This document shows, one piece after another, positions 17,786 through 34,082 of a stretch of 64,000 nucleotides of DNA. Under the pieces are notes generated by a model, which had not been told where the DNA came from, did no database searches, and saw only the letters and a list, made by a program, of their open reading frames with translations. The translations under genes and the position numbers were made by a program. This DNA comes from an uncultured Ruminococcus sp. Its GTDB lineage: Bacteria > Bacillota > Clostridia > Oscillospirales > Acutalibacteraceae. Each line of letters begins with the position of its first letter. Within the stretch, counting starts at the first letter, position 1. The stretch spans positions 5,926 through 69,925 of the forward strand of contig CACYWT010000005.1 in NCBI GenBank assembly GCA_902778175.1, written 5' to 3'.

Positions 17786-18067
17786 TATTATAACCGCAAA
17801 TTCAAGTGTGCGGTATTGTCTGAAATCAATTTTCGTCATTGTGCAATATTTTAATGTTCGTTTTATATATTTTTGTACAAAATGCTATTTTGGTATTGAA
17901 AAAACGTGAAAAATAATGTAATATATTAATAGGTATGTATAGTGGTATAGGTATATCAATTTTTATATGCAAAATGATTATTTGTGATAAAACCTCGCGC
18001 TCTGCATTATGAAAAAGATAGGATTGTCCGATTATTTGCGGATAATTATTAAGTTAGGGTGAACCAT

Positions 18068-21040
18068 ATGGAGAAATACCAGTTTTCAGAAACTGAAAAG
18101 AAATTGATCGAGAGTATTCAGCAGCCTTTAGTTATTTATCAGTATATAAACAAGCGTGTAGTTTCCATTGCGATTTCAGACGGTTTCTGCGAATTGTTCG
18201 GATATACTGACCGCAGTGAAGCGCATCATGATATGGATCATGATATGTACAGGTATACGCATCCTGATGATACTGCGAGAATATCAGAAGCAGCCATTCG
18301 CTTTGCGAAATATGACGAGCCTTTTGATGTCGTATATCGTACAAGAAGGAACAACTGCGCTTGTTATGAGATGATTCACGCGATTGGAAAGCATTATTTC
18401 ACCGAATCAGGAGTTCGTCTTGCTCATGTATCGTATACTGATGAGGGTCCGTATTCTCAGGACGGCTGCATAAGCAAATCAAAGCTCAATACAACTATCA
18501 GCGGCGTCCTTCATGAAGAAAGTCTGGTCAAGGCAAGCCAGTTTGATTATCTGACGGGGCTGCCGAGTATGACTTATTTCTTTGAGCTTGCGGAGCTTGG
18601 CAAGGAATCTATCGAAAAAAGCGGCGGAGTTCCCGCTATGCTTTTTATGGATCTGAGCGGAATGAAATACTTTAATTCCCAATACGGTTTTACTGAGGGA
18701 GATAAACTGATCCAGCAGTTTGCGCGCTTACTTGCACATACATTCAATAGTGAAAACTGCTGTCATATCAGCGGAGATCATTTTACCGTATATACTGAGC
18801 AAAAAGGACTGTCAGACAGATTAAATAAATTTTTTGACGAATGGAAAACACTAAATGACGGCAAGACGCTTCCCGTAAGGGTGGGAATATACACAAACGA
18901 TTTACTGAATCTTCCGGCAAGTATAGCTTGTGACAGGGCTAAATTTGCCTGTGACACGATAAGGAATACATTTAAATCCGGGTTCAGTTATTACGATAAG
19001 AATCTTAGTGATGAAGCAGAAAGAAAACAGTATGTACTTACAAATCTTGATCGTGCAATAAAAGAAAAATGGATAAAGGTCTATTATCAGCCGATAGTAC
19101 GAGCTTTCAGCGGTCATGTATGCGATGAAGAGGCTCTTGCAAGATGGATCGATCCGGAAAAGGGTTTTCTGTCCCCGGGATTCTTCATTCCGTTTCTTGA
19201 AGAGTCGGGGCTTATATATAAGCTCGATATCTACATGGTAGAACAGGTTCTTGAAAAGATGAAATATCAGCTTGAGAACGGCATTAATATAGTTCCTCAT
19301 TCGATCAACTTTTCCAGATCTGATTTTGAGGCTTGTGATCTTGTCGAGGAAGTCCGCAGCAGGGTAGATGCCTCCGGGATCCCCCGCAAAATGATAACTA
19401 TAGAAATAACAGAAAGCGCTGTAGGAAATAATTTTGATTTTATGAAATCACAGATCGAGCGTTTTCAGGAGCTTGGTTTTCCTGTATGGATGGACGACTT
19501 CGGCAGCGGTTATTCTTCGATGGATGTTTTGTCGAGTATCAAATTTGACCTTATCAAGTTTGATATGGTGTTCATGAAGAAATTCGATGTTGAGGAAAGC
19601 AGAAAGATCATACTGACCGAGCTTATGCGTATGGCGACATCTCTTGGTGTTGACACTGTATGCGAGGGCGTCGAAACAGAAAATCAGGTCGTATTTCTTC
19701 AGGAGATCGGATGCGCAAAGCTTCAGGGCTTCTATTTTTCAAAGCCGATACCTCTTGAAACTATTATCGAAAAATATGAAAAAGGGATCCAGATCGGCTA
19801 TGAAAATCCTGATGATGCGAAATACTGCGAGATTATGGGAAGAGTCAATCTTTATGATCTTTCGGCTATTGCAAGTGATGATGACGGTTCACTGAATCAT
19901 TTCTTCAATATGCTTCCAATAGGAATAATAGAAATGCAGGATGACAGCGTTCGTTTTGTGCGGAGCAATCCCTCCTACAGATCGTTTATCAAGCGTTTCT
20001 TTAATTTCGATATGAATTATGCCAGTGTTAATTTTGCAAAAACAAGTAAAATATCAGGTTTTAATTATATTAATTTTCTCAGGGATTGCTGTAAATCCGG
20101 AACACGTCTTGTATATGATGAGCAAATGCCGGACGGTTCAATTGTACATTCATTAGGTAAAAAAATAGCCTATGATCCCGTCAGGAACAGAACAGCCATT
20201 GCCGTAGCCGTTCTTTCAATATCGGAACCTGATAAGGGCGCAACATATGCATCAATAGCACGGGCTCTCGCAGCCGACTATTATAATATTTATTATGTAG
20301 ATCTTAAAACGGATAAGTTTATCGAATACAGCTCGACAGTAGGCGGAGAGGAACTTGCTGTTGAAAGACACGGAGAAAAATTCTTTGAAACTGCCAGACA
20401 TGATACGATGAAACGCATTTATGAAGAAGACAGGGCTCCGTTCCTTACAGGATTTACAAAGAAAAACATTCTTAATGAGCTTGATCAAAACGGTTCATTT
20501 ACGTTTACATACCGGATTATTGATTTTGGGGAACCCACATATGTCAATATGAAGATAATGAGAATGAATCCCGATAGGAACCATATTATTATAGGTATCA
20601 GTGTTATAGATTCCCAGATGAAACAGCAGGAGCTTCACGATGCAATTCAAAGGGAAGAGATGGCTTATTCGAGGATAATGGCTTTGTCCGGCAGCTATCT
20701 TAGTCTTTATACTGTCGATCCGGAAACAAACGGTTATTACCAATATGTTTCTGCTGATGGATACAATAAATTGGATTTAAATAGAAACGGAATAGATTTT
20801 TTCAACGACGGTATTCGTGACTGCAGGAAAATTATATATGATGAGGATATAGATCTGTTCATTGATAATTTCAAAAAGGAAAAAATACTTGTTGATATCA
20901 AAGAAAACGGTGCGTTCATGTTAAAATACAGGATAATTATGGAAAATGAAATCGTACCCGTATTGTTAAAGATAGTTCCGATAACAGAGAGAAACAAAGA
21001 AAAGCTTATCGTAGGTATAAGAAGATGGAAAACAAGATGA
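18068..21040 (+). CDS. multidomain c-di-GMP phosphodiesterase: PAS, degenerate GGDEF, EAL and C-terminal PAS-like repeats
   Basis: The EAL domain looks intact ('YYQPIV', 'EEALARW', 'IEITES', 'DDFGSGYSS', 'CEGVETENQ', 'QGFYFSKP'). The GGDEF motif is degenerate ('ISGDHF'). About 400 aa after EAL contain repeated 'Y(Y/L)..Y.VD..T' PAS-like units. The start could be GTG 18059 or ATG 18068. Confidence 0.8.
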   Translation: MEKYQFSETEKKLIESIQQPLVIYQYINKRVVSIAISDGFCELFGYTDRSEAHHDMDHDMYRYTHPDDTARISEAAIRFAKYDEPFDVVYRTRRNNCACYEMIHAIGKHYFTESGVRLAHVSYTDEGPYSQDGCISKSKLNTTISGVLHEESLVKASQFDYLTGLPSMTYFFELAELGKESIEKSGGVPAMLFMDLSGMKYFNSQYGFTEGDKLIQQFARLLAHTFNSENCCHISGDHFTVYTEQKGLSDRLNKFFDEWKTLNDGKTLPVRVGIYTNDLLNLPASIACDRAKFACDTIRNTFKSGFSYYDKNLSDEAERKQYVLTNLDRAIKEKWIKVYYQPIVRAFSGHVCDEEALARWIDPEKGFLSPGFFIPFLEESGLIYKLDIYMVEQVLEKMKYQLENGINIVPHSINFSRSDFEACDLVEEVRSRVDASGIPRKMITIEITESAVGNNFDFMKSQIERFQELGFPVWMDDFGSGYSSMDVLSSIKFDLIKFDMVFMKKFDVEESRKIILTELMRMATSLGVDTVCEGVETENQVVFLQEIGCAKLQGFYFSKPIPLETIIEKYEKGIQIGYENPDDAKYCEIMGRVNLYDLSAIASDDDGSLNHFFNMLPIGIIEMQDDSVRFVRSNPSYRSFIKRFFNFDMNYASVNFAKTSKISGFNYINFLRDCCKSGTRLVYDEQMPDGSIVHSLGKKIAYDPVRNRTAIAVAVLSISEPDKGATYASIARALAADYYNIYYVDLKTDKFIEYSSTVGGEELAVERHGEKFFETARHDTMKRIYEEDRAPFLTGFTKKNILNELDQNGSFTFTYRIIDFGEPTYVNMKIMRMNPDRNHIIIGISVIDSQMKQQELHDAIQREEMAYSRIMALSGSYLSLYTVDPETNGYYQYVSADGYNKLDLNRNGIDFFNDGIRDCRKIIYDEDIDLFIDNFKKEKILVDIKENGAFMLKYRIIMENEIVPVLLKIVPITERNKEKLIVGIRRWKTR

Positions 21041-21113: not shown

Positions 21114-21986
21114 ATGAAGGGACAACCGCGAAAAAACACTTTAATGCAGCTTCAGGTTGGTATAGTATGGAAGATCGTTGCTTCGTTTGTGATAATGCTG
21201 CTGCTGATTCTTATAGTTTATTACTGTAATATTCCGAATCCGAATATGATACTTATAGCAGGACTTGTCCTGTGCTCGGCAATGTTCGGATACGGAGGCG
21301 GAATAGTGGCGTCGGTTATCATGCTGTTCTATACTTTGTTCTTTTTCTCGACAGATAACAGTTTCATTCATTTTACCGATCAGAGTTTTCAGAAGGTGAT
21401 CGTATCCCTTTTCGGAATAACAGCAGATATGATTCTTGTATGCGCGCTGAAAAGGGCGGAGGTAAATGCTTTCAGAGAAATTGATATTCTGACAGAAAAG
21501 CTCAGAGAAGAAAACAAACATCTGCATAATCTTTCACTTACAGATGCATTGACCGGTATCAGAAATCGTCTTGCGCTGCGTCATGATTATGATCTTTATT
21601 GCAATCATGAGGTAACTGTAATGATGGTCGATCTTGATAAATTCAAAGCCATAAATGATAACTACGGTCATCAGGAGGGCGACAGGATACTGAAAGAAAC
21701 AGCAGCACTTCTTTCTGATACTTTTGGCTTGCAGCACTGCTATCGTTTCGGCGGAGATGAGTTCCTGGTTATCATTCCGGATATTGACGAAGAATTATTC
21801 AAAGAAAGGCTGGATAAAATGATGAAGTCAAGACCGGAGATCAAAGAGAACGGAAAAACTGTACAGGTAGGTTTTTCAATAGGATATGTACATGAAAAGC
21901 TCAGCGATAATGATAAACTCAGGAAAATGTTCTCCTCGGCTGACGAGCTTATGTATGAAGCGAAAATGAAAACAAAATCAGAATAA
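21114..21986 (+). CDS. membrane-anchored diguanylate cyclase (GGDEF)
   Basis: Four hydrophobic N-terminal segments. 'DALTGIRNR' and an intact 'RFGGDEF'. RBS 'aaggaga' is present. Confidence 0.85.
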   Translation: MKGQPRKNTLMQLQVGIVWKIVASFVIMLLLILIVYYCNIPNPNMILIAGLVLCSAMFGYGGGIVASVIMLFYTLFFFSTDNSFIHFTDQSFQKVIVSLFGITADMILVCALKRAEVNAFREIDILTEKLREENKHLHNLSLTDALTGIRNRLALRHDYDLYCNHEVTVMMVDLDKFKAINDNYGHQEGDRILKETAALLSDTFGLQHCYRFGGDEFLVIIPDIDEELFKERLDKMMKSRPEIKENGKTVQVGFSIGYVHEKLSDNDKLRKMFSSADELMYEAKMKTKSE

Positions 21987-22133: not shown

Positions 22134-22153
22134 CATGAATTGGGGTGTATATT

Positions 22154-23551
22154 ATGATCAGCGCAAAAAACAATGATAAAAAAGTCAGAAGCAGTAAGAA
22201 AAATTTCATACTTGCTCTTATATTGCTTTTATCTACTAATATAATTATGGGCATAGTACTGATGAGCTTGTCCAAAAATTCACTTCGCAGTCAGATCTAC
22301 AGTCATATGCTTGATGTATCAAATATGGCTGCTTATCAGCTTGACGGCGATGAAATGAGAGATATGAAAGCAGAAGATATCGGCAGCGAAAAGTATAACA
22401 AGGCTCTTAAAATACTTCGCTCATATCAGCAAACCATACAGCTTGATTATATTTATGCTGTAAGATCCGATAATGACGGAACTTTCTCTTTTATGATCGA
22501 CCCTGATCCGGATTCTCCGGGTACTTTCGGTGAATCAATAGAAACAACGCAGGCATTGATAAATGCATCAAAGGGTACTGCAGATGTTGACGATGTTCCT
22601 CATACTGACGAATGGGGCAGATTTTATTCTGCATATAGTCCGATATTTGATTCAAAAGGAAATGTTGCCGGTATCGTCGGCGTAGATTTCAATGCAGACT
22701 GGTATGACTCAAAGCTTAATTCAAACAGGGCGGTCGCAGTCATAATAACAATTGTTGCTATGACTATCGGTATAATACTTTCGTTTATTATGATGTCGAA
22801 GAACAGAAAGCGTTTTAATGAAATGCTGAGAAACCTTTCAGAGCTTGATCTGGTAACGCTGAAGCTTGATTCCATGATAATGAAAAGTTCGATCAAAAAG
22901 CTTGATTTTCTGCCGAACAGTGAAAGCAAGGTACTGAAAACACTTGCATCGGGAGAAAGTGACACAAGAGAAGTCAGGAATGAATATGATGAAGTCAGCT
23001 CGAGTATTGAAAGTGTATACGAAAAACTCAATAAATATCTTAAATATTTAGATTCTGAGGTATATACAGACAATATGACCGGCGTCAGCAATAAAGCGGC
23101 ATACAGAAAAGCTGTTAATTCCATAGGGGAGAAGATAAAAGAAGGCAAAGCTGTTTTCTCAATAGGGTATTTTGACATAAACGAGATCACAAATATATAT
23201 ACGATTTACGGATATGAAGCAGGCGATATGGTTATGTATGAAACTGCAAAGGTGCTTATGGATGTTTACGGCAAGGAAAATGTCTTTCATATTACCGGTG
23301 ATGAATATATTGTTATTGTTGAAGACGGCGACGCAGAAAAAATGGAATACTATTTCAGAAAATTTGAAGAAGGTATTGAAAAATATAATACAGAACACAA
23401 TAGTCAGAACAGGATCACAGTCGGAAAAGGGTATGTAATATACGATAAGGAAAAATACCCGGACTACCGGAGTGCTTTCATTGCAGCTAAGAAACGATGC
23501 GATGAAGATAAGGCAGAATATTTCAAAAGAAAGACTCAGCCGATCGAATAA
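22154..23551 (+). CDS. membrane sensor with extracytoplasmic Cache-like domain and degenerate GGDEF domain
   Basis: Cache-type pattern 'YIYAVRSD...DEWGRFYSAYSPIFDSKGNVAGIVGVDF' lies between two TM helices. The C-terminal GGDEF fold has 'ITGDEY' in place of GGDEF. Confidence 0.75.
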   Translation: MISAKNNDKKVRSSKKNFILALILLLSTNIIMGIVLMSLSKNSLRSQIYSHMLDVSNMAAYQLDGDEMRDMKAEDIGSEKYNKALKILRSYQQTIQLDYIYAVRSDNDGTFSFMIDPDPDSPGTFGESIETTQALINASKGTADVDDVPHTDEWGRFYSAYSPIFDSKGNVAGIVGVDFNADWYDSKLNSNRAVAVIITIVAMTIGIILSFIMMSKNRKRFNEMLRNLSELDLVTLKLDSMIMKSSIKKLDFLPNSESKVLKTLASGESDTREVRNEYDEVSSSIESVYEKLNKYLKYLDSEVYTDNMTGVSNKAAYRKAVNSIGEKIKEGKAVFSIGYFDINEITNIYTIYGYEAGDMVMYETAKVLMDVYGKENVFHITGDEYIVIVEDGDAEKMEYYFRKFEEGIEKYNTEHNSQNRITVGKGYVIYDKEKYPDYRSAFIAAKKRCDEDKAEYFKRKTQPIE

Positions 23552-23563
23552 TAATAACTGCAT

Positions 23564-23596
23564 AAAAAAACTGCCGCGCTATTGCGGCAGTTTTTT
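23564..23596. terminator. bidirectional intrinsic terminator
   Basis: Stem ctgccgc/gcggcag flanked by aaaaaaa on the left and tttttt on the right. It lies between convergent genes. Confidence 0.8.
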
Positions 23597-23598
23597 CG

Positions 23599-23835
23599 TT
23601 ATTTGAGTGAATCGAGTTTTTTCTGCAGGTCGATCATATGATTACGGCAAGCGGTGATCTCGCCGGTGTATTTATTGAACCATTCAACATCGCGTTCATC
23701 AGGAGTTTCCTGCAGAAGCACCGCCTGAACCAGAGCCGACTGTGATCTTGAACGTTTGCGCTCGATCTCGTCGATCGTCTGGCGGCAGATTTTGATTTCT
23801 TTTTTCAGTTTATGTTTTTCAAAATAGTTACCCAT
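23599..23835 (-). CDS. small coiled-coil protein, unknown function (last gene of the minus-strand operon)
   Basis: 78 aa, charged and heptad-like, with no TM helix. It starts 10 nt after the upstream gene. Confidence 0.55.
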   Translation of the reverse strand: MGNYFEKHKLKKEIKICRQTIDEIERKRSRSQSALVQAVLLQETPDERDVEWFNKYTGEITACRNHMIDLQKKLDSLK

Positions 23836-23845
23836 AGCAAATCCC

Positions 23846-24307
23846 TCAAAATCCTTTCTTGTTAATGGAATCTACGACTTTGGCTGCTTCATCATATCCT
23901 TTGTCGAGATTCTGGCTCATATCTGTAACAGCTGTTCTGATATCTTCAAGAGTATCTTTTTTTTGAATCTGTTCCGGATATTTCATCATGCAGGTCTGCA
24001 GTTCATTGACAGTACGTTTCTGGTCATCAGTCAGACCGGTCATAACGAAGGCAAAGCTGTTTGCACTGCTGTAATCGGAAAGGATCCTGCGGTATCTCAG
24101 CGGAAGATCACCCTCGGCGTCCAGATAGGAATCAATATTGGCTGATGTCTTGATAAGATAATTATTGAACTGTGCGCGATATGTTTCCTGTACCCGATGT
24201 GTTTCGTCGATGTAAAGTCCGATGAAGATCAGAAGAGCGATCAGTGTTATAACAAACAGTACGATCGCGCGGATCATACGACCTTTCATTATTTTTTCCT
24301 GTGTCAC
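23846..24307 (-). CDS. single-pass membrane protein, unknown function
   Basis: 153 aa with an N-terminal TM 'AIVLFVITLIALLIFIGLYI'. Its GTG start overlaps the stop of the upstream 1,016-aa gene (GTGA), which implies translational coupling. Confidence 0.6.
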   Translation of the reverse strand: MTQEKIMKGRMIRAIVLFVITLIALLIFIGLYIDETHRVQETYRAQFNNYLIKTSANIDSYLDAEGDLPLRYRRILSDYSSANSFAFVMTGLTDDQKRTVNELQTCMMKYPEQIQKKDTLEDIRTAVTDMSQNLDKGYDEAAKVVDSINKKGF

Positions 24308-27300
24308 TGTGCGTTCACCTCTTCATCAGACTTATTATCAACATTGCCATCATTATCAGCATTTGCATTTTCTTCGGAGGTATCATCTTCCTCTGAGGTG
24401 TCTTTTCCTTCGGAAGTATCATCATCTCCGGAGGTATCTTTTTCTTCGGAGGTATCATCATCTCCGGAGGTGTCTTTTTCTTCGGAAGTATTATCTTCTC
24501 CGGAAGTATCATCTTCTCCGGGAGGATCCTCACCGGTGTTTTCAGGCTTATAATTTTCTGCAGCAAGCCGTTTCTTTTCGGCTTCTATTGCTTCGCGCAT
24601 ACGTTTTTCATATTTTTCCTTTGCTTCTTTATCTTTGTCCTCAGATGCTTCCTTACGAGCTTGTTTGCCTATCTTTATCATAGATTTCAGCTCATAAAGC
24701 GAGATCAGAGTCAGAGGTATCATTACAAGCAGCAGGAACAGCTTGTGAGTATCGGCAAAGGATCCGAGCCACATATAGAATCCGGACTTACGGACATATA
24801 TACCGAATACATTGGACGGTTTAACGGGTATCTGATCGTTTACGGGATTAGCATCTCCTCTTGTGACGAAGGTTCCGTCTCTGCCGATCCATGCGATTCT
24901 GTGGGTGACAAGCTTGCCCTTGATATCCTCCTGATCGGAATAGAAGGAAATGATATCATCTTTTTTAAGGGTAGCCGGATCACACTTTTTAACTATAATA
25001 TAATCATTAACATGAAGTGTTGATTCCATGCTTCCGGTTTCGACCCTGAGAATACTGTATCCGAAAATATCGACCGGATGACCGATGATCGTGCAGGCAG
25101 TAACATATATAGAGAATACAACAGAAAATCCAAGCAGGAATAAAAGCAGACCGTTAAGCAAACGCTTATACAGCTTTCTGTCTGATAAATCTATCTCATC
25201 ACGCCATGCCTTATACCGTTTTGTCTCGCTTACGAACCAGCGGCGGATGTGTTCAAATATGCTTACATGATATTCTCTGTAGAGAGCGCGCATCTCTCTC
25301 TGTATCTCAGCCTGCTGCTCAGGCGTATACTTTGATTTGTATACCGGCCTTGGCTTGTTTTTGCGGTCTTTCTTGCGCTTGCGCTGGAATTTGCGATCCT
25401 GTATACTACGCATAGTGCGGTACTTGAAAGTCTGCGCATACTTTTTGTAGTATACTTCCATTCTGGTTCGTTTTTCTTTTTCTTTTGCTTTCTTTTCGCG
25501 CTTGTCAATAATTTGCTGACGGCGCTCCTTGAAATCCGGACGGTCCGTGTCTTCCGGTATGATTCCGAAAACCATAGCCAGAATATACCTGATAAGACGA
25601 ATGAGCATCCAGAAAGGATTTCTTGAATATTCGCGGCGGATCTGTTTAAAGGGCTTGCTTTCAAAGTACTTGCGCTCTGCTTTAAGCCGCTGTGCGCGTT
25701 CCGTTTCGGCGCGTTCCTTTTCACGCTGCTGCTGTTCCCGTTTCATACGGGCTGCAACCTCTGCCGGAGATTCGTTTTCGGGAAGTTTCTTTGCTGCGGC
25801 AACCTCCGGGGGAGATTCCTTCGCTTTGATATCGGAAGCAGTACCCAGTTCGGAGCGGACACGTTTCTTTTCTTCTGCGATGCGTATTCGTTCGCGTTCC
25901 TTAGCCTCTTCAGCCTCACGCTGCTTCCGTTCTTCCTCGAGTCTGGCTTTTTCTTCCTCTTCCTTTTTGCGTTTTTCCTCGAGAAGCCGCAGACGTTCCT
26001 GCTCCATACGTTCGCGTTCGCGTTCTGCTTCTTCCTGTTCTCTTCGTTTCTGCTCGAGCATTTCCTGGATAAGCCGTTCCTGTTCGGCTTTTTCCGCTTC
26101 AATGCGTTCAAGCTCAGCCTGACGTTCTGCTTCAATGCGTTCTTCTTCAAGCCGCCTGCGTTCCATTTCCTCGGCAAGTCTTTGTTCTTCCAGTTCCTTT
26201 GCCCTGAGTTCTTCCTGATAGTTTTGTTCTATCTGAATAGCAAGTTCGATCTGCTGAAGTATCTCATCTGCATTTTCGGGGACGGATTGCCTGAGCTGCA
26301 TATCGCTTGTCTGTGTGATATAGCCCGAACCGCCTTTTGACGTAGAGTCAAATCTTGTACTGACATCTTCAAACAGTTTAACTATCTTCGGAGCAACAGG
26401 CTCAAGCTGTCTTACTTCCATCAGTTCCTGATCCGGAGAAACAGAGGATCTGAAAAGCAGCAGATGCAGACCGATCAGTTCATAGAAATCATTAATGAAG
26501 TTTTCATTCGGCTGGACAGCCGAATCCTCAATATTGATCTCATAACCGACTTTATCATAGCTTTCGATATACTGCCAAAGTGTAAGGCAGGCTTTGAGGT
26601 CAACATTTTTCATAATTGCGTTGGTACGCATTACCGGGGGACGGATATATGTGCTGCCGAGTGTCTGGCATAATTCAGACCCCTTATAACCTTCAATGAC
26701 CTTTTTAAGCTTTTCGACTCTCTGCCATATCGTATAGCCGCTCCGGTCCCTGGTTTCAAGACTGTGTTCATTTTCAATATGAACTTCAATCTTCATTTTG
26801 CCGCCGTTGCGGTCGTCGATCGAGGTATTGAAACCGAGTGTGAATACTTCCTCGTCCTTTGACACCTTTGCGAGCTTTTCATAACGCATGGTTATGAAGA
26901 TATAAAGTCTGTCGATGAGCGTATTTACAAATTTATTTTCATATGTCATAAGGCTTTCTTCCTTATGAACATTAAGTATTTTCGACGGAGTTATCTTACC
27001 GGTTTTTTTATCAATGCTTTGTATCAGGTCTGTATGCTGAGCCAGATGCTTTACAGATTCTACGGTAATTTTTTTCGATAGTGCTATAGGAACAATCTCT
27101 TCAACGTCCTCGATCGTTCTTCTCGGATTACGCAGGACATTGTCTACATGAATAAGTCCCTTTTCGATCGCCTCGACCCAGGAAGAGTCAATGACCTTCT
27201 GCATTACAATGCGGTTAAGAGCAAAAGATCCTTCCGTGCCTTTGAGAATGTTCATCAGCGATTTGAATTGCGGATCATCTTTATACAGATCCATTACTTC

Positions 27301-27354
27301 ATTGTGTTCCTGATCATATTCGTCACGGTATGGATTTTTTTCTTCATCGCTCAC
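24304..27354 (-). CDS. fusion protein: McrC/DUF2357-like N-domain, E/R/K-rich long helix, TM, SipW-type (S26, Ser/His) signal peptidase, TM and acidic repeat tail
   Basis: The N-terminal ~310 aa are soluble and carry 'TYENKFVNTLIDRL'. Residues ~365-565 are almost only E/R/K/A/Q/L. A TM helix follows ('LLNGLLLFLLGFSVVFSIYVTACTIIG'). The S26 motifs are 'GSMESTL', 'THRI' and 'RGDANPVND'. A second TM helix is 'LFLLLVMIPLTLISLY'. The tail carries DTS-rich repeats. Confidence 0.7.
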   Translation of the reverse strand: MSDEEKNPYRDEYDQEHNEVMDLYKDDPQFKSLMNILKGTEGSFALNRIVMQKVIDSSWVEAIEKGLIHVDNVLRNPRRTIEDVEEIVPIALSKKITVESVKHLAQHTDLIQSIDKKTGKITPSKILNVHKEESLMTYENKFVNTLIDRLYIFITMRYEKLAKVSKDEEVFTLGFNTSIDDRNGGKMKIEVHIENEHSLETRDRSGYTIWQRVEKLKKVIEGYKGSELCQTLGSTYIRPPVMRTNAIMKNVDLKACLTLWQYIESYDKVGYEINIEDSAVQPNENFINDFYELIGLHLLLFRSSVSPDQELMEVRQLEPVAPKIVKLFEDVSTRFDSTSKGGSGYITQTSDMQLRQSVPENADEILQQIELAIQIEQNYQEELRAKELEEQRLAEEMERRRLEEERIEAERQAELERIEAEKAEQERLIQEMLEQKRREQEEAERERERMEQERLRLLEEKRKKEEEEKARLEEERKQREAEEAKERERIRIAEEKKRVRSELGTASDIKAKESPPEVAAAKKLPENESPAEVAARMKREQQQREKERAETERAQRLKAERKYFESKPFKQIRREYSRNPFWMLIRLIRYILAMVFGIIPEDTDRPDFKERRQQIIDKREKKAKEKEKRTRMEVYYKKYAQTFKYRTMRSIQDRKFQRKRKKDRKNKPRPVYKSKYTPEQQAEIQREMRALYREYHVSIFEHIRRWFVSETKRYKAWRDEIDLSDRKLYKRLLNGLLLFLLGFSVVFSIYVTACTIIGHPVDIFGYSILRVETGSMESTLHVNDYIIVKKCDPATLKKDDIISFYSDQEDIKGKLVTHRIAWIGRDGTFVTRGDANPVNDQIPVKPSNVFGIYVRKSGFYMWLGSFADTHKLFLLLVMIPLTLISLYELKSMIKIGKQARKEASEDKDKEAKEKYEKRMREAIEAEKKRLAAENYKPENTGEDPPGEDDTSGEDNTSEEKDTSGDDDTSEEKDTSGDDDTSEGKDTSEEDDTSEENANADNDGNVDNKSDEEVNAQ
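24355..24543 (-). repeat. in-frame 36-nt tandem repeat encoding (EEKDTSGDDDTS)n acidic tail
   Basis: There are two exact 12-aa units (aa 958-969 and 970-981), flanked by degenerate units. The repeat is visible on the plus strand as ggtatcatcatctccggaggt(a/g)tctttttcttcgga. Confidence 0.85.
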
Positions 27355-27444
27355 TTCATTCTCACCTGCCGATCATTATTATTTCGGGATATATCTCATC
27401 TGTTCACAGCATTAAGCTCAGACAGACAAATATCCCATTGAAAG

Positions 27445-27473
27445 TTTGTCCTGCCCCTTTGGAGCAGGACAAA
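27445..27473 (-). promoter_or_regulatory. intercistronic stem-loop between the McrB-like and McrC-like genes
   Basis: 10-bp stem tttgtcctgc/gcaggacaaa with a 9-nt loop, inside the 149-nt gap. No clear U-run follows on the minus strand. Confidence 0.4.
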
Positions 27474-27503
27474 GCTGAACCTGAAATAATGAGGAAAATA
27501 GCC

Positions 27504-29081
27504 TCAGAATAGTTTTTGCAGTCTTTGAAGGTAAGCGATGGATTCGCCCATTTTATTCTTACCGAAGAGTTTTTGCAGATAAACGCAAAGCTCTTTCAGT
27601 TCTTCACGGAGCATTGCAAGGTTCAGAGATTCAAACTTACGGAAAATTTTTGTAGCGAGCACATAGTCAATACCATCAAGTTCATCGCCGCCGCAGGCAA
27701 CATAAACAGGAACAAACAGTCCCATCTGCTTAAGAATACGGTTACCGAAAGCGACACGGAGCTTTTCAATTACCCACAGGTCGAGCTGATGGATTTTCTT
27801 GAGGTTTTCCTGAGAAATAGGATACATCTTAAAGGCTTCCTCAAACATAGCGTTAAGATGAGAAAAGCTGAGCCGCAGGGGAGGAGTATCCGGAGCTTCA
27901 AATGCGATACCTTTTTCATCAAGGTTGATAGGCTGAGCACGGTCGTAAACCTTATCAGAAATAGCAAATGTGGAGTCGTCGTTATTTGCAGTACCGATAT
28001 ACCATATATTCTGCGGAATATGGATCTTGCCGTGATCGAGCTTGACAGGGTCAGTACTCCATGCATTTGGCACGATATCGAGTTCCCATTCATCTGCATT
28101 GGGCATTTCAAGAATGGAGAGCATTTCTGCGAAATAGTACTCAATACGCGCAATGTTCATTTCGTCGAGGAGTATCAGGTTGACGTCATCATTGTAGCCT
28201 GATGAATAAATACGTTTAAGAACCTCTGTTTCGTTGAAGTTCTTTGTAAATTCGTTGAAGTAACCGAAAAGCTCGGTACGGTCACGCCATGAAGGCTGAA
28301 CAGATGCGATAGTAGTATCGACCTGCAGGAATTTACCGAATGAATAGGGAAGAGATGTTTTACCTGTACCGGAAATACCCTGGAGAATAATAAGCTTTGT
28401 CGAAGCCATACCAGCAAGGAAAAGTCTGATAGTTTTCTGGTCGTAGAACAGGTGCATTCTTGAGCAGGCAAAATTGCGATACCGCTCTACAATACCTTCG
28501 AGAGTGATCTCATTGTCATACTCAGGCGGTATGAAGTTGGAATAGAAATTGTCCACTTCCATGAGCTTTGAGAAACGCCGCTCGGTGGTCTTGACAATAC
28601 CTGCCTCGAGCTCCTGCGGAGCGCCCTCTTCGCCTTCTGCGGGAATACCGTCCGGGGAATAAGTTCCGCCGGAAGCAAGAGAAAGCCTTGCGCTTCCGGG
28701 GACGCCGATCTGAGCGACCTTCATAGCCATGATCTCGTCTTTTTCCTTGACCATTTTTATAACGCGCTGCTGGAGAATAGCGATCTCCTCCAGAAGGTCT
28801 TCATTGCTTACAATGGAATGACGGAAACGGATATATTTCCGTATTGCAAGAATGATGATGAATATGACAAGCAAAAAGATAGCAATGACTATTATGATCG
28901 CCAGAACGGAAAGGATCCATTCCAAAGCGCCGAACTTAGTCGAATATTCCTTGAATAAGTCTACATATTTTCCTATATTGAAAATTTGTTGTATTCCTGC
29001 CCATAATCCGATGAACATCTGCGCAAAGCCCTGCAGTATCTCGGATATGAAGGCGAAAAACCATTTCAAAAAATTATCCAT
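27504..29081 (-). CDS. membrane-anchored McrB-like AAA+ (AAA_5-type) NTPase
   Basis: TM helix 'WILSVLAIIIVIAIFLLVIFIIILAI' at aa ~55-80. Walker A 'GISGTGKT' (nt 28356-28379), Walker B 'LILLDEMN' and 'NIWYIGTANNDDS'. RBS 'aggagga' is present. Confidence 0.7.
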   Translation of the reverse strand: MDNFLKWFFAFISEILQGFAQMFIGLWAGIQQIFNIGKYVDLFKEYSTKFGALEWILSVLAIIIVIAIFLLVIFIIILAIRKYIRFRHSIVSNEDLLEEIAILQQRVIKMVKEKDEIMAMKVAQIGVPGSARLSLASGGTYSPDGIPAEGEEGAPQELEAGIVKTTERRFSKLMEVDNFYSNFIPPEYDNEITLEGIVERYRNFACSRMHLFYDQKTIRLFLAGMASTKLIILQGISGTGKTSLPYSFGKFLQVDTTIASVQPSWRDRTELFGYFNEFTKNFNETEVLKRIYSSGYNDDVNLILLDEMNIARIEYYFAEMLSILEMPNADEWELDIVPNAWSTDPVKLDHGKIHIPQNIWYIGTANNDDSTFAISDKVYDRAQPINLDEKGIAFEAPDTPPLRLSFSHLNAMFEEAFKMYPISQENLKKIHQLDLWVIEKLRVAFGNRILKQMGLFVPVYVACGGDELDGIDYVLATKIFRKFESLNLAMLREELKELCVYLQKLFGKNKMGESIAYLQRLQKLF

Positions 29082-29111: not shown

Positions 29112-29882
29112 TTATTTTTTATCGTCCTGAGAATCAGATTGTTTTTCTTCTTGTTTTTCTTCGCTCGGAGGAGCTTCTTCCTCCGGCTTTTTTTCCTGAT
29201 CTGTCTTATCGGGTCCCGTTTCATCAGCAGGATTTGTATCTGCTTTGTTTTCAGCCTCTTTTTCCTTTTGTGCAGCAAGGTATTCCTCAATAGCGCGGCG
29301 TTTTATTTCTTCCTCGTCAAGCTGGGGTTCGGGCTGCGGATTCTTTACCTTTATGACAGTAACGATAAATTTGTACAGCTCGAACAGGAAGAACAGAGCC
29401 ATAGGAATAAGTATGCAGACAAAGAAACCTACCTTTGTGCGCAGGAAAGCCATGATATTTCCGGCGCCGGTCAGTTTGATATTAGTCCATTTACCGATAA
29501 GCTCAGCCTGATATGCCGGCAGATCATCGTCGATGGGGTTATTGTCGCCTCGGGTGATAAAGCTGAGGCTGTTGCCGGTATCGTTGATACTTACGATACG
29601 GTGGGTATTTTTAACTTTTTTTCCGTCGATAAGCGTCCAGAATGTGATGACGTCATCGACCTTTAAGCTTTTCGCGTCGTCGATCTGTTTACAGATGATA
29701 AGGTCGCCCTCGTTGAAGGTCGGGCTCATTGACTGAGATTCGACTGTCAGGGGAATGAATCCGAAGATATTCGGAACACCACCGCTGTTTGACGAAGAGA
29801 AAACGAGGATAGTAACAAGCAGCGCCAGAATGACAATTAACCATAGAACTACATTGCCGATAATTTTAAGTGCCTTTTTCAT
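29112..29882 (-). CDS. sipW: signal peptidase I, SipW/archaeal-ER type, with acidic C-terminal tail
   Basis: Architecture is TM, 'SQSMSPTF' (Ser), 'THRI' (His), 'RGDNNPIDD', a second TM and a K/E/D-rich tail. RBS 'aaggaga' is present. Confidence 0.8.
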   Translation of the reverse strand: MKKALKIIGNVVLWLIVILALLVTILVFSSSNSGGVPNIFGFIPLTVESQSMSPTFNEGDLIICKQIDDAKSLKVDDVITFWTLIDGKKVKNTHRIVSINDTGNSLSFITRGDNNPIDDDLPAYQAELIGKWTNIKLTGAGNIMAFLRTKVGFFVCILIPMALFFLFELYKFIVTVIKVKNPQPEPQLDEEEIKRRAIEEYLAAQKEKEAENKADTNPADETGPDKTDQEKKPEEEAPPSEEKQEEKQSDSQDDKK

Positions 29883-29903: not shown

Positions 29904-30707
29904 TTACGTTGATTCAGTTATATGGAAATTCATTCCAAATTTGATGGTTCCACCGACGATATCGTCAATACAGTCGGGGTCATTACCCTCGAGCCATATC
30001 ACGACGGTATATTTGTCTTTTGCTTTTGCTTTAAATCCATCGGCTTTGGTTTTCATTACTATAGTAGAGGAGAGAAATGTTTCGTTGCAGTCGCTTTCCT
30101 TACCGCCGCCGTTGGATTTTGTTTTTCCGTAGACAGTTTTATTGCCGTTTTTATAAACTGCAACACGGATAGCCTCATCGACATTTTTTGTAACATTCTC
30201 GATATTTAGTTCGCCCTCATAAGAAATAGTGTCATCGCCGGAGTTTATCAAATAGAATGTATAGGCGATATAATTATCACTGTTATGGGCGCCGTTGATC
30301 TGGTCTACGTTTGCAGGGATATCATTACCGCTGATATTTGTCATATTATAGACGATATCGGCATTGAGTACGGACTGAGAAATATCGTAGTCGGGAGTTT
30401 CCGATAGGGTAAGACCCTGCTTGACCATATCGTATTTGTCGATACGGACGGTAAAGCTGCCGAATTTGGAGTAGAAGTAAGAAATAGCGTAAGCGGCGGC
30501 TACTACCATGATAAGGATAAGGGTTATAAGAGCGAGGATACGGATAAGGATCTTGTATCGTTTAGTTTCTTTTGCGGTACGCCGCAGTTCAAGGACATCC
30601 CTGATATCGGTATCATTGCTTTTACCTTCTTTATTTTTCTTTTTCTTTTTCTTTTCGTTAGGTTCTTCTTTAGTTTCTTCTTTTACCTCTTTTACCTCAT
30701 CAGCCAC
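29904..30707 (-). CDS. TasA-like beta-sandwich protein with Lys/Glu-rich cytoplasmic N-tail and signal-anchor (TapA-like position)
   Basis: 'AAAYAISYFYSKF' follows the TM helix. 'AIRVAVYKNG' and 'IWLEGNDPDC...IKFGMNF' are shared with the 31881..33077 product. RBS 'ggaggtg' is present. Confidence 0.6.
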   Translation of the reverse strand: MADEVKEVKEETKEEPNEKKKKKKNKEGKSNDTDIRDVLELRRTAKETKRYKILIRILALITLILIMVVAAAYAISYFYSKFGSFTVRIDKYDMVKQGLTLSETPDYDISQSVLNADIVYNMTNISGNDIPANVDQINGAHNSDNYIAYTFYLINSGDDTISYEGELNIENVTKNVDEAIRVAVYKNGNKTVYGKTKSNGGGKESDCNETFLSSTIVMKTKADGFKAKAKDKYTVVIWLEGNDPDCIDDIVGGTIKFGMNFHITEST

Positions 30708-30855: not shown

Positions 30856-31596
30856 TTATTCAAGCAGCTCGGAAAGCTGCACATAATCGCCCGAAAGTGG
30901 GCCGGCGCAGTAATTGCAGCCGAATTCATAGAAAGCCTCTGCCTGGGTACTGTTTTGCACGCCGTCAGCGATAGGCTCCATACCGAGGTCGTTAATAAAG
31001 GTTATGATAGAATTAACAGCCTGATCGGTACGTTCCTTTTTACCCACGGAATAGGTAATAGACGGGCTGAGCATAACGTAGTCAACGGAAAGCTCGGAAA
31101 GTCTGATATAGGGGCAGCTTATCTCACCGAAATTTTCGAGGATAATATGGTAACCTCTGCGGCGGAGCCTTGCGGTATTATCTGCGGCGACGGAATCGGA
31201 CTGATAGAGAGTCTGTTCCGGAATTTTAAAGCATATAATGTTAGGGGTAATTTTGCTCTGTTCGCAGATCTTATCAGCGAGGGCGGAAGCCGTGCTGTCC
31301 CTGAGGATACTGAGCGGCATATCAATGCAGATCCAGTTAAAGAAGCGTCCTGATTCTTTCAGATTGCGCAGAGCCTCAGCGAGCTGCAGCAGTTCAAGGT
31401 GGAACAGATCTGAGCTTTTGTTGTTTTGTTCTGCGACAGGGCGGAAAGATTCAGGCATAAGGATACCGAGCCCGGGGGTATTAAGGTGTGTACGCGCGAG
31501 GTAGCAGACAGTTCTGCCGCTTGCGATATCGCGCAGAGGGCGGTAATTAAGCTCAATTGCGCGCAGACCGCCGACGTTAGTACGGGTTTCGGGCAT
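30856..31596 (-). CDS. stand-alone degenerate EAL-domain protein (predicted catalytically inactive)
   Basis: EAL-fold pattern 'YRPL..(x)..GILMPESFRPVAE'. The catalytic motifs are replaced: EAL to 'YLA', DDFG(T/S)G to 'ENFGE', K to M in 'VDYVMLS', EGVE to 'DGVQ' and QG to 'AG'. Confidence 0.7.
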   Translation of the reverse strand: MPETRTNVGGLRAIELNYRPLRDIASGRTVCYLARTHLNTPGLGILMPESFRPVAEQNNKSSDLFHLELLQLAEALRNLKESGRFFNWICIDMPLSILRDSTASALADKICEQSKITPNIICFKIPEQTLYQSDSVAADNTARLRRRGYHIILENFGEISCPYIRLSELSVDYVMLSPSITYSVGKKERTDQAVNSIITFINDLGMEPIADGVQNSTQAEAFYEFGCNYCAGPLSGDYVQLSELLE

Positions 31597-31650: not shown

Positions 31651-31679
31651 ATTCTACCATATATTACTACAAAAGTCAA
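31651..31679 (-). promoter_or_regulatory. sigma-A-type promoter for the EAL gene and operon
   Basis: Minus-strand TTGACT-17 nt-TAGAAT with an extended -10 TG. It lies about 55 nt upstream of the ATG at 31596. Confidence 0.6.
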
Positions 31680-31745
31680 ACCAAAGAGAGGGGTATATGA
31701 AAAAAATTAAAACAATAATTATTTCTGAATTTTCTTATAAATGTA

Positions 31746-31774
31746 TTGACAAAATTATATAAAACTGGTACAAT
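31746..31774 (+). promoter_or_regulatory. near-consensus sigma-A promoter for the TasA-like gene
   Basis: TTGACA-17 nt-TACAAT with an extended -10 TGn. It diverges from the minus-strand promoter about 70 bp away. Confidence 0.65.
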
Positions 31775-31880
31775 ATAATCAATAGTATAGCAGCATTGCG
31801 ACTACGGTGCTTAGTGAGGAGCAAAGCTCCCGACAACTACATTAAACTAACTATATTAATACGAGAAAGGAAAATGCTTT

Positions 31881-33077
31881 ATGAAAAAGACAGAAAACAA
31901 AAAAAGCAGAAGCAGCGCGAAGAAAAAGCTAATACCGGCAACGTGTATGCTTTTGGTTTCCGCTACTATGCTCGCAAGCTCAACGTATGCTTGGTTCACC
32001 ATGAATAAGGAAGTTACTCTTACCGGTATGGAAGTAAAGGCAACAGTTGGTGATTCACTGTTGATTGCAAATTCTACAAAGGGTACAGCTCACGCAGCTG
32101 AAAACACATTTGCAAAGGGAACGAATTTTGCTATTACTGGTATGCTTCAACCTGTGTCAACAGTAAATGCAGCAAACAATTCATACTTTTACACATACGA
32201 TGCAAAGGCGGATGGTAGCAAAGCATCAGATACTGCTCAGATTGCATATACTGCAGTAACATATGGTGAAAATGCAAATGCATACAAGGTTTCTACTGAT
32301 GGTGGTACTAATTATGATTATGATGCATTTGTTGATTATGTTGTAGAGTTGAAGGCCATTAACTCTGATTCAGCTAATGCAAAAGAGCTTAGATTGACTA
32401 ATTTGAACCTTTTATATGATGGAGTAGTTCTTCAGGATCATGCTTATCGTGTAGCTATTTTCCAGCAAGATGGAGATAATTCTTCTAATATTATTAATCC
32501 TACCTACACAGCTATAGCTGATACAGCTGGAGCCAACAATATTTTTGCTTATACAGATTTCGATTATTTCGGAACTGATGACAATGCGGAAGGCGTTGCT
32601 TCAACAACAACTAAGGGAGCGATTGTTCCTGATGTAAATAATGAGGCTTGGACAAAGGTTATTCCTGCAGGAAAAACTGATTACACTAAGTTAACGATCA
32701 GGCTTTGGCTTGAAGGCGAAGATACAGACTGCTATTCATCCAAGTTCCTTACTCTAAGCAAGGAATGGACATTAGATCTTAAGTTTGAGCTTGCTGATGG
32801 AGCTTCAGATACCACAACAACAGCTGCGACTACAGCTATTAATAGCGGAATAAAGGCTTCTGCAACAGATGCTGGTGTAGCTTCACTCTCCAGTCCTCAC
32901 ACAAGTGCTCAGGCAGTTTCTTATCAGTGGTACAAGGATAACCTTGGTGCATTGCCTGATACCGAAGTTTCTGGTCAGACCTCCGGTACTTATTCCGGTA
33001 CGGCTGGAAATGTTTACTGCGTAATCACTACTGAGAGAGGAACCAAGTATAGGACCAATACTATTACAGTTTCGTAA
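31881..33077 (+). CDS. secreted TasA/camelysin-like protein with SipW-cognate-type signal peptide and C-terminal Ig-like domain
   Basis: N-terminus 'KKKLIPATCMLLVSATMLASSTYAWFTMNKE' has the A-x-F motif right after the h-region. 'AYRVAIFQQDG' and 'LWLEGEDTDC...LDLKFEL' are shared with the 29904..30707 product. The C-terminal ~55 aa ('YQWYKDN...GNVYCVITT') look Ig-like. Confidence 0.7.
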   Translation: MKKTENKKSRSSAKKKLIPATCMLLVSATMLASSTYAWFTMNKEVTLTGMEVKATVGDSLLIANSTKGTAHAAENTFAKGTNFAITGMLQPVSTVNAANNSYFYTYDAKADGSKASDTAQIAYTAVTYGENANAYKVSTDGGTNYDYDAFVDYVVELKAINSDSANAKELRLTNLNLLYDGVVLQDHAYRVAIFQQDGDNSSNIINPTYTAIADTAGANNIFAYTDFDYFGTDDNAEGVASTTTKGAIVPDVNNEAWTKVIPAGKTDYTKLTIRLWLEGEDTDCYSSKFLTLSKEWTLDLKFELADGASDTTTTAATTAINSGIKASATDAGVASLSSPHTSAQAVSYQWYKDNLGALPDTEVSGQTSGTYSGTAGNVYCVITTERGTKYRTNTITVS

Positions 33078-33441: not shown

Positions 33442-33675
33442 ATGAGCACAAGAGAAATAGCATACAACATTTTTCAACAGCTTACAGAAGAACAGCTTAA
33501 AGGCTTTATCGCTATGTTTAAGGACTATTTTGTACAAACTCAAAATAACGAACAGTGTGAAATTAATGAACGAAGGGAAATTCTTGAGTCGATTCAAGAG
33601 TTGTTTAGACCAATGCCTGACCTTGATTATGAAAAAGAACTTGAACGATATAGAAAGGAGAAGTATGGCGTATGA
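33442..33675 (+). CDS. putative antitoxin of the PIN toxin
   Basis: 77 aa, acidic. Its stop overlaps the PIN gene start by 4 nt (ATGA). Confidence 0.6.
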   Translation: MSTREIAYNIFQQLTEEQLKGFIAMFKDYFVQTQNNEQCEINERREILESIQELFRPMPDLDYEKELERYRKEKYGV

Positions 33676-34082
33676 AAATTTTAATTGATACGAATGTCAT
33701 ACTTGATCTTATATCTGTCAGAGAGCCATTTGTAAATGATTCCCGAAAAATCATAGAACTGTGTACCGATCAGCAATCCGAGGGTTTTATTGCTGCTCAT
33801 TCCGTTATGAATATGTTCTACATTCTGCGTCATGAACTTCCGTTGCAGGATAGAAGAAAGGTACTGCTCGGTTTTTGTAAATTGCTCACCGTAGTCGGCA
33901 TAGACGAAAAATTGATAATTTCTGCTCTTACAAATGAAGATTTTTCCGATGTTGAGGACTGCTTGCAGATAGAATGTGCCAAAAGCTGCGGCGCACAATA
34001 TATCGTTACAAGAAATATCAAGGATTACACAAACAGCACCGTCCCAGCTATCACACCCGATGAGTTTTTGAAATTGATTTGA
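33672..34082 (+). CDS. PIN-domain (VapC-like) toxin
   Basis: 136 aa. 'MKILIDTNVILD' carries the first acidic PIN residue. Later acidic residues are in 'DFSDVEDCLQ' and 'IVTRNIKD'. Confidence 0.75.
   Translation: MKILIDTNVILDLISVREPFVNDSRKIIELCTDQQSEGFIAAHSVMNMFYILRHELPLQDRRKVLLGFCKLLTVVGIDEKLIISALTNEDFSDVEDCLQIECAKSCGAQYIVTRNIKDYTNSTVPAITPDEFLKLI

Follow-up and report, generated by a model that had tools for sequence, protein, structure and literature searches.

The stretch of DNA analysed here (the window; 64 000 nucleotides of contig CACYWT010000005.1, from an uncultured Ruminococcus sp.) carries two neighbouring genes which encode a membrane-anchored relative of the McrB nucleoside triphosphatase (NTPase) and a protein in which a DUF2357 domain, the N-domain of McrC, is joined to a SipW-type signal peptidase. 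By their features the two genes form the core of a system of the CoCoPALM type; the operon to which they belong is strictly conserved and lies beside a secreted protein that is hypervariable and has a signal peptide of the SipW type. We hold it rather probable that this core is a nuclease-free, membrane-bound derivative of McrBC, which would use nucleotide to gate the SipW-dependent maturation and assembly of surface fibres; as far as function can be inferred, the best reading is that of a GTP-driven membrane machine for surface fibres. A preliminary description, made from the sequence alone, maintained that no system with such an architecture was known. This does not hold, since the class was named CoCoPALM by Bell et al. 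(eLife 2024; PMC11090510), who in their section 7 devote one paragraph to it, without experiments, and defer its analysis to a future paper. What the present locus adds is the fused McrC-SipW form, a quantified census of synteny and a conservation gradient toward a surface-appendage function.

The two core proteins and their peptidases

Both open reading frames (ORFs) are present as first described, one of 525 amino acids (aa) and one of 1016 aa, and the motifs and the domain order reported for them were borne out. Since both proteins have homologues in thousands, neither ORF is a chance frame. An assembly or frameshift artefact as the source of the 1016-aa ORF was ruled out as well: in an independent Logan assembly the locus is identical and the 1016-aa gene is called in the same way, and fusions of ~990 aa exist in 7 other genomes. 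The features of the core, together with the stand-alone peptidase encoded directly upstream, are as follows.

27504..29081, minus strand: McrB-like AAA+ NTPase, 525 aa, NxD branch (ORF; PDB, hhalign, PADLOC model PDC-M26A at 2.5e-37)
28821..28943, minus strand: hydrophobic membrane span of the NTPase, aa 47-87 (Kyte-Doolittle scan)
28356..28379, minus strand: Walker A motif GISGTGKT, aa 235-242 (motif position; invariance in the alignment)
27978..27986, minus strand: McrB signature (sensor-1) motif in its NxD form, N366-N367-D368, part of GTANNDDS (alignment)
24304..27354, minus strand: fusion protein, 1016 aa, with DUF2357 domain, coiled coil, basic linker, SipW-type peptidase between two spans and acidic repeat tail
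26320..27354, minus strand: McrC N-terminal-type domain (DUF2357), aa 1-345, with a conserved YENxF motif (Pfam PF09823)
25855..26292, minus strand: predicted coiled-coil stalk rich in E/R/K, ~aa 355-500 (composition profile)
25165..25854, minus strand: basic linker, aa 501-730 (hydropathy; separate ORFs elsewhere)
24676..25164, minus strand: SipW2 module, with span 731-759, S26 domain (Ser775, His818, Asp834) and span 866-893 (NCBIfam, Pfam, hydropathy)
24307..24675, minus strand: C-terminal tail, predicted cytoplasmic, with an acidic D/E/T/S tandem repeat (hydropathy; Tandem Repeats Finder)
29112..29882, minus strand: SipW1, stand-alone SipW-type signal peptidase, 256 aa, directly upstream of the NTPase gene (NCBIfam)

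By its profile matches and motifs, the 525-aa protein is an AAA+ NTPase of the McrB family, NxD branch, in which a membrane anchor and a short helical stalk appear to have replaced the DNA reader. Its sole significant matches in the PDB are to E. coli McrB (E = 5.7e-5, aa 210-382), the NCBIfam McrB model matches it at 1.1e-4, and a profile of 22 members of its family aligns with E. coli McrB with an hhalign probability of 96.6% (E = 6.3e-10); all 22 members match AAA_5 individually, the best at 4.6e-8. A MoxR/RavA-type assignment was rejected, as no such match appeared, and the placement with McrB proposed from the motifs was kept. The family is large: at E<=1e-3 it counts 8150 cluster representatives, and 762 remain at E<=1e-30. 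In the alignment of the best-scoring ones residues G235, G238, G240, K241, T242, D306 and N309 are invariant, i.e. positions of Walker A and of Walker B (LILLDEMN, aa 302-309). As for the signature motif GTANNDDS, which starts at aa 363, the best-scoring representatives clustered at 50% identity read GTAN-x-D-[D/E/Q/G/A]-STF…DKVYDRA: the Asn and the Asp two residues further on are invariant, the next position is D, E, Q, G or A, and the window protein has N366-N-D368-D369. The canonical NxxD signature of McrB is thus not the form of this family, so that the branch first assigned from the motif set stands while the motif itself is the NxD variant. According to Bell et al. (PMC11090510), this variant, usually followed by D or E, defines a major non-canonical branch of McrB.

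The layout of the protein is that of an N-terminal membrane anchor followed by a short helical stalk, a low-complexity linker and the NTPase domain, which should be cytoplasmic. Hydropathy reveals a single strong span at aa 47-87; the basic stretch RKYIRFRH comes after it and, by the positive-inside rule, places the NTPase domain in the cytoplasm. The stalk is a helical, heptad-like stretch at ~aa 90-125, recognised by eye in the sequence. No Pfam domain was matched in the N-terminal 183 aa, which, with the strong span, agrees with the earlier statement that an anchor sits where a DNA reader would be. The closest 50%-cluster representatives have one or two N-terminal membrane spans, while more distant ones have either 4-5 spans or none, the latter with a coiled coil of 400-500 aa as in CnuB of the CoCoNuT systems. 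Homology of this N-terminus to FtsB/DivIC was not reproduced with HMMER and Pfam: one of the 22 family members gave a weak DivIC/FtsB match (E = 0.012) and the window protein gave none.

The N-terminal ~340 aa of the partner correspond, on the strength of the Pfam profile, to DUF2357, the McrC N-domain, from which the nuclease appears to have been lost. When the coiled coil is removed, PF09823 matches aa 1-342 with E = 1.3e-8 and 34.9 bits (cutoff 23.3) over aa 70-169, around the YENxF motif; the stretch TYENKFVNTLIDRL, on which the DUF2357-like character had first been recognised, occupies aa 137-150 (nt 26905-26946). A Pfam scan of the full-length protein found the S26 peptidase and missed DUF2357, which we attribute to the composition of the coiled coil because the match is seen once that segment is taken out. 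In a diverse set of 35 homologues, which reaches down to 24% identity, 34 match the domain individually (best 1.2e-13), and homologues bear the NCBI name 'DUF2357 domain-containing protein'. No nuclease family was matched in the window protein or in the 35 homologues. After aa 160, conservation reaches 95% or more among 76 homologues at R212, P240, T244, N245, K249, L259 and W260; none of these is acidic, therefore the PD-(D/E)xK active site is absent, as had been supposed.

Behind this domain comes the stretch that was initially described as an E/R/K helix of ~200 aa. The stretch is there, with up to 74% E/R/K per 50-aa window, but it is shorter, nearer 150 aa (aa 355-500); its composition predicts a coiled coil, and in the PDB it matches coiled-coil proteins only. 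The basic linker that follows contains a weaker, amphipathic hydrophobic segment (aa 580-601) and exists as a separate 242-aa ORF in R. bicirculans-like genomes. In these (L001:9983-12114; also L002 and L003) the McrC homologue shifts reading frame within the coiled-coil region: a 576-aa product ends in an out-of-frame sequence rich in K/R/S, and the 242-aa ORF, in another frame, continues the homology. As the 576-aa product is listed in 426 blocks of the collection, this would be a fixed split or, possibly, a programmed frameshift rather than an assembly error.

Both signal peptidases look active, with catalytic residues intact. In the fused copy, SipW2, the motifs are GSMES (aa 774, with Ser775), THRI (aa 817, with His818) and GDAN (aa 833), so the S26 Ser/His peptidase is indeed complete; it scores 62 bits against TIGR02228, the model for archaeal/ER-type signal peptidase I (cutoff 51.85), 2.4e-19 against the SipW model and 1.6e-5 against Pfam Peptidase_S26. 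The catalytic Ser and His are kept in 52 of 52 SipW2-type homologues. For SipW1 the corresponding scores are 2.2e-32 (NCBIfam SipW) and 97 bits (TIGR02228), with Ser and His kept in 83-84 of 89 homologues of its type. Both copies remain below the 190-bit equivalog cutoff for B. subtilis SipW and are, therefore, SipW-like proteins and not orthologues. Hydropathy and the positive-inside rule would place the peptidase domain of the fusion outside the cell and its DUF2357 domain, coiled coil, basic linker and acidic tail in the cytoplasm. The repeat in the acidic tail is genuine (nt 24366-24532, period 18/36 nt by Tandem Repeats Finder). The tail of SipW1 is rich in K/E/Q; like the acidic tail of SipW2 it is long, charged and cytoplasmic, and among genomes the length of SipW tails is highly variable, with SipW ORFs of 173-409 aa.

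Synteny and conservation of the cluster

Relatives of the NTPase were sought in a collection of one genome per GTDB species. At least 594 stretches encode one, and the best 80 were analysed. The records belong to Ruminococcus, with the isolate R. flavefaciens MC2020 among them, to Oscillospiraceae, Christensenellaceae, Acutalibacteraceae and Erysipelotrichaceae, and to entries titled Bacilli or 'Tenericutes'. Nearly all of these loci are metagenome-assembled, and many isolate names indicate rumen or gut samples.

A DUF2357 homologue lies downstream of the NTPase gene in all 75 testable loci, adjacent to it in 73 and with a SipW gene between them in two, so that the pairing first noticed in a single locus is general among those analysed. 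Upstream of the NTPase gene a SipW gene lies directly next to it in 59 of 61 loci, the homologue of p267 (one of the two candidate substrates presented in the next section) is found in 49/61, an EAL-domain protein in 36/61 and a protein like p398, the other candidate, in 31/61. On the other side, SipW is fused to the McrC homologue or encoded directly behind it in 49 of 65 loci: a separate gene occupies this place in 42, and the fusion is seen in seven, all of the Ruminococcus type. The seven related genomes with a fusion of ~990 aa include that of the isolate R. flavefaciens MC2020, and the fusion point falls exactly at the boundary between the two genes of the unfused genomes, i.e. the arrangements are colinear. 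Because this colinear fusion occurs in an isolate genome and in an independent assembly, a physical link between McrC homologue and SipW is supported.

The proteins of the cluster differ widely in conservation. Among the Ruminococcus loci, median identities to the window proteins are 78% for the NTPase, 69% for p267, 64% for the McrC N-domain, 61% for SipW1, 46% for SipW2 and ~27% for p398. Such a gradient, from a conserved motor to a hypervariable secreted protein, is typical of surface-appendage machines and points to one here.

In several loci of records titled Bacilli, Erysipelotrichaceae or Tenericutes (L068, L070, L072, L074-L076, L078, L080 and L081) the McrC homologue has ~370 aa and consists of DUF2357 without the coiled coil or the linker, with up to five SipW paralogues nearby. 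These loci look like a minimal version of the system.

Candidate substrates and genomic surroundings

The operon runs on the minus strand in the order EAL, p267, SipW1, NTPase, McrC-SipW2, p153, p78, with p398 transcribed divergently from its upstream end. The members introduced here are the following.

31881..33077, plus strand: p398, secreted protein encoded by a divergently transcribed gene; signal peptide of the SipW type (…SSTYAWFT; family motif, AlphaFold2 model)
30856..31596, minus strand: EAL-domain protein, first gene of the operon (Pfam EAL, 1.6e-35)
29904..30707, minus strand: p267, conserved beta-sandwich protein anchored in the membrane by one span, behind a basic N-tail; its extracellular domain has WLEGNDPDC at the end
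23846..24307, minus strand: p153, small single-span membrane protein (ORF, hydropathy)
23599..23835, minus strand: p78, small conserved helical protein, last gene of the operon (homologue at L001:13262-13489)

In the p398 family the hydrophobic leader is closed by '(S/A)TYAWF(T/S)', with an invariant A-W-F, in the style of SipW-cognate signal peptides. The AlphaFold2 model of p398 is good (predicted local distance difference test score, pLDDT, 81.7; predicted template modelling score 0.78) and consists of a leader helix (aa 17-31), a disordered segment (31-53), a beta-sandwich (59-305) and a C-terminal immunoglobulin-like domain; the modelled disorder ahead of the beta-sandwich recalls the subunits that polymerise by donor-strand exchange. 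A C-terminal 'WLEG(N/E)D..C' is common to p267 and the p398 family, while p267, unlike p398, keeps a basic cytoplasmic tail and its membrane span. We consider p398 a candidate for a hypervariable major fibre subunit and p267 a candidate for the fibre base or a minor subunit, a role in fibres being for both a reasoned hypothesis. No Pfam or NCBIfam model matched p398, and p267 had sub-threshold matches to unrelated families only; TIGR04088 was marginal on the p398 family (0.021 in 2 of 18 members), and a PDB profile search with that family returned no match. The two neighbours had at first been called TasA-like. The label was dropped, as no PDB match of the good p398 model reached significance; what it rested on reduces to the SipW-type signal-peptide motif and weak, non-significant fold matches (Sulfolobus threads 7pnb, CS20, CanA, the TasA fibre 8aur and FimG, with Foldseek E from 1e-2 to 1e-1).

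By eye, the catalytic motifs of the EAL protein look degenerate (YLA, in CYLART, for EAL and ENFG for DDFG), and those of its L001 homologue likewise; the protein is probably a non-catalytic receptor of cyclic di-GMP (c-di-GMP). At the other end of the operon the 1016-aa gene and p153 overlap by 4 nt, stop on start, and a p153 homologue follows SipW2 in Ruminococcus loci. A strong terminator-like hairpin is found after p78 (23565-23596); it has a 14-bp stem and would be a bidirectional terminator, shared with a convergent GGDEF gene. Divergent promoter-like sites lie at 31651-31782, between the operon and p398.

Among the flanking genes of the window are those for a phosphotransferase system, Enzyme I, GH2 and GH36 proteins, galK, galT and several GGDEF proteins, and no mobile or defence genes were found among them. 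Four genes of the window appear to encode diguanylate cyclases, at 4934-6301 (minus strand), 18059-21040, 21114-21986 and 22145-23551 (all three plus strand). The product of the first was recognised by a Pfam match, and the other three, which abut the 3' end of the operon, by reading their translations only; one of these three also reads as EAL-bearing. With four such genes, the region is suggested to be under heavy c-di-GMP control.

Beyond p398, a gene at 34557-55046 (plus strand) encodes a secreted protein of 6829 aa of the giant-adhesin type, with Cna_B and SpaA (prealbumin-like) domains and a weak match to CBM26. Since a giant gene (>3242 aa) also adjoins the L001 cluster, in another arrangement, the linkage may be functional. 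A gene at 33672-34082 (plus strand), which separates p398 from the giant adhesin gene, encodes a PIN_3-domain protein (2.9e-19), a VapC-like toxin candidate.

Proposed function, alternatives and relation to known systems

The DUF2357 domain of McrC plugs into the McrB ring. By analogy, a cytoplasmic ring of the window NTPase would dock the McrC-like DUF2357 domain, and nucleotide hydrolysis would be relayed through the coiled-coil stalk to the membrane peptidase. This relay would time or gate the step at which p398 and p267 are cut from their signal anchors, and the subunits released in this way would enter a surface fibre or pilus-like polymer as it grows; c-di-GMP probably tunes the output, its input coming via the degenerate-looking EAL protein. 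The scheme would resemble the association of an assembly ATPase with a prepilin peptidase. The scheme as a whole is modelled on established McrBC architecture and on SipW/TasA-type systems, e.g. the BsaA model of C. perfringens (PMC11580942); the idea of pilus assembly for CoCoPALM comes from Bell et al. (PMC11090510). The c-di-GMP context, with an EAL protein in the operon and four GGDEF genes in the window, counts for surface fibres, as do flanks of sugar-metabolism genes in place of a defence island.

Several observations weigh against this interpretation. Taken alone, the window NTPase matches AAA_5 weakly (E 0.15-0.23), and its other Pfam matches are weak and to generic AAA models. For the partner, hhalign of the N-domain family with E. 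coli McrC gave no match, PDB profile searches with two N-domain alignments returned coiled-coil noise or nothing, with no McrC, and the AlphaFold2 model of the McrC-like domain, made from an 18-sequence alignment, is poor (pLDDT 65.6, and below 50 for the most conserved segment, aa 79-133). With such a model Foldseek found nothing in the PDB at E<=1e-3 and no McrC, the matches being meaningless ones, e.g. to actin-capping protein and TolC; the assignment to DUF2357/McrC made at the outset is thus upheld by the Pfam profile and not by structure comparison. We do not count the negative hhalign result against membership in DUF2357, because E. coli McrC belongs to a different Pfam family. No SipW gene directly follows the McrC homologue in 16 of 65 loci. 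For p398 and p267, neither sequence nor fold gives a significant match to TasA or any pilin; the lowest E-value from Foldseek is 2.2e-3, and the TasA fibre 8aur has 4e-2. Force transmission through the coiled coil and the nucleotide specificity are pure inference, and no experimental work on any member of the CoCoPALM class was found in the literature. The literature likewise held nothing later on 'CoCoPALM', nothing on 'PDC-M26' and no link between SipW/TasA and McrBC beyond Bell et al.

An alternative already raised in the preliminary description is that of an anti-phage or anti-plasmid defence, in which an McrBC-derived sensor-motor would have exchanged its nuclease effector for a membrane protease, killing or arresting the infected cell or cleaving a phage protein. 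The ancestry of the parts is in Type IV restriction, the sister clade of CoCoNuTs is predicted to be defensive (PMC11090510), and the NTPase domain matches the PADLOC candidate-defence model PDC-M26A with the E-value given above. However, this match is limited to the shared NTPase domain, its best stretch covering 120 of the 724 positions in the profile, and no other protein of the operon matches the PDC-M26 models; moreover, both the nucleic-acid reader and the nuclease are absent. Among many species of Ruminococcus the NTPase stays at 76-80% identity, and the gene order is fixed across families, unlike what is seen in patchy islands of fast turnover; the flanks are housekeeping genes of sugar metabolism, and putative secreted substrates of the SipW type are conserved along with the cluster, as are c-di-GMP genes. 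We consider that this genomic context makes a defence function improbable. At the far end of the scale stands the absence of any functional coupling, i.e. a degenerate McrB/McrC relic beside a sipW/fibre operon, with a fusion created by the accidental loss of a stop codon. It could be argued from the rarity of the fusion (7 of 65 loci) and from the McrC homologue split by a frame change in R. bicirculans-like genomes, but a relic would hardly be expected to keep its NTPase motifs invariant across the family, to have the NTPase as the most conserved protein of its cluster, to maintain the pair in 75 of 75 loci from several Bacillota families, or to be represented in at least 594 stretches in a collection with one genome per species; we regard it as very improbable.

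A third possibility would reverse the direction of the information flow. In a form of transmembrane signalling or quality control, the coiled coil would relay inward whether the extracellular peptidase has its substrate engaged or cleaved, the receivers being the McrC-like domain and the NTPase, and the NTPase would act as a timer or switch for matrix genes or c-di-GMP, or else as an extractor of cleaved signal peptides. B. subtilis SipW is reported to have a second, regulatory role which depends on its C-terminal tail. This precedent, the long cytoplasmic extensions of both SipW paralogues (one with the acidic repeat), the degenerate-looking EAL protein of the operon and the GGDEF genes nearby all fit such a reading. 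On the other hand, Pfam and NCBIfam revealed no DNA-binding or known output domain among the operon proteins, a motor, two peptidases and putative subunits that are strictly conserved together can be explained at least as well by a biogenesis machine, and none of the features tells the two directions of information flow apart. To us inward signalling seems unlikely, though less so than defence.

Returning to a machine for surface fibres, we propose, tentatively, that an McrBC-derived ring serves as the energy source or gate of an unrecognised class of SipW-dependent surface fibres, widespread in Bacillota of the gut and rumen. If so, this would be the first McrBC-family machine to work on a membrane protease and protein substrates instead of nucleic acids, and the natural McrC-SipW fusion of the R. 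flavefaciens group would reveal the physical coupling between them. A restriction-enzyme motor would have been exapted as a cell-surface assembly machine, which would widen the repertoire of McrBC-type AAA+ proteins, and Ruminococcus and related Clostridia and Bacilli of gut and rumen, hosts in which adhesion to plant fibre and mucus is ecologically central, would possess an unstudied fibre or pilus system. With the fusion, and with isolates available (R. flavefaciens MC2020 is one), the hypothesis is open to direct tests. There is also a warning for annotation: defence-system annotators, e.g. PADLOC through PDC-M26A, will flag such NTPases as defence genes, against their genomic context.

Compared with canonical McrBC (E. 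coli EcoKMcrBC), the window system shares a homologous AAA+ core with Walker A, a DExN-type Walker B and the sensor-1 Asn, and an adjacent partner that bears a McrC-type N-domain. It differs by a membrane anchor in place of the DNA reader, NxD in place of NxxD and the lack of a PD-(D/E)xK nuclease; in addition, the partner is fused to a membrane peptidase and has no detectable similarity to E. coli McrC. Since three defining features, NxxD, the DNA reader and the nuclease, are absent, it is not a canonical McrBC: it is built of McrBC-like parts and is not a restriction enzyme. The CoCoNuTs (CnuB/CnuC), as presented by Bell et al. (PMC11090510), are a sister clade within the NxD branch; their NTPase domains are 35-45% identical to that of the window, they have long coiled coils, and their McrC homologues are often without an active nuclease. 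Their NTPases have no membrane span, however, and are always paired with HEPN or other nucleases, whereas the system of the window combines membrane anchors with peptidases and secreted proteins and has no nuclease.

Among SipW-dependent systems, the tapA-sipW-tasA operon of B. subtilis and the sipW-bsaA-bsaB-bsaC operon of C. perfringens (PMC11580942) likewise have a dedicated SipW gene beside genes for secreted beta-sandwich proteins, with a SipW-type motif closing the signal peptides; they have one SipW only and neither an NTPase nor a McrC-like partner, and no significant similarity links p398 or p267 to TasA or BsaA. With type IV pili there would be a functional analogy, a cytoplasmic hexameric NTPase being combined with a dedicated membrane peptidase that cuts subunit leaders, but AAA+ McrB and PilB/GspE belong to unrelated families, as do the S26 serine peptidase and the aspartic prepilin peptidase, and no platform protein was identified here. 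The closest likeness is with CoCoPALM, as outlined in section 7 of Bell et al. (PMC11090510): an NxD-type McrB NTPase with an N-terminal span and a putative coiled-coil segment, a DUF2357 McrC homologue with a coiled coil, an association with signal-peptidase-family proteins, and occurrence in Bacillota. Where that section places an FtsB-like domain on the GTPase, the window protein has a span and a helical stretch with no Pfam match to DivIC/FtsB; and, beyond the separate genes, with no such fusion mentioned in that section, the window joins the McrC homologue and one of its peptidases in a single polypeptide of 1016 aa.

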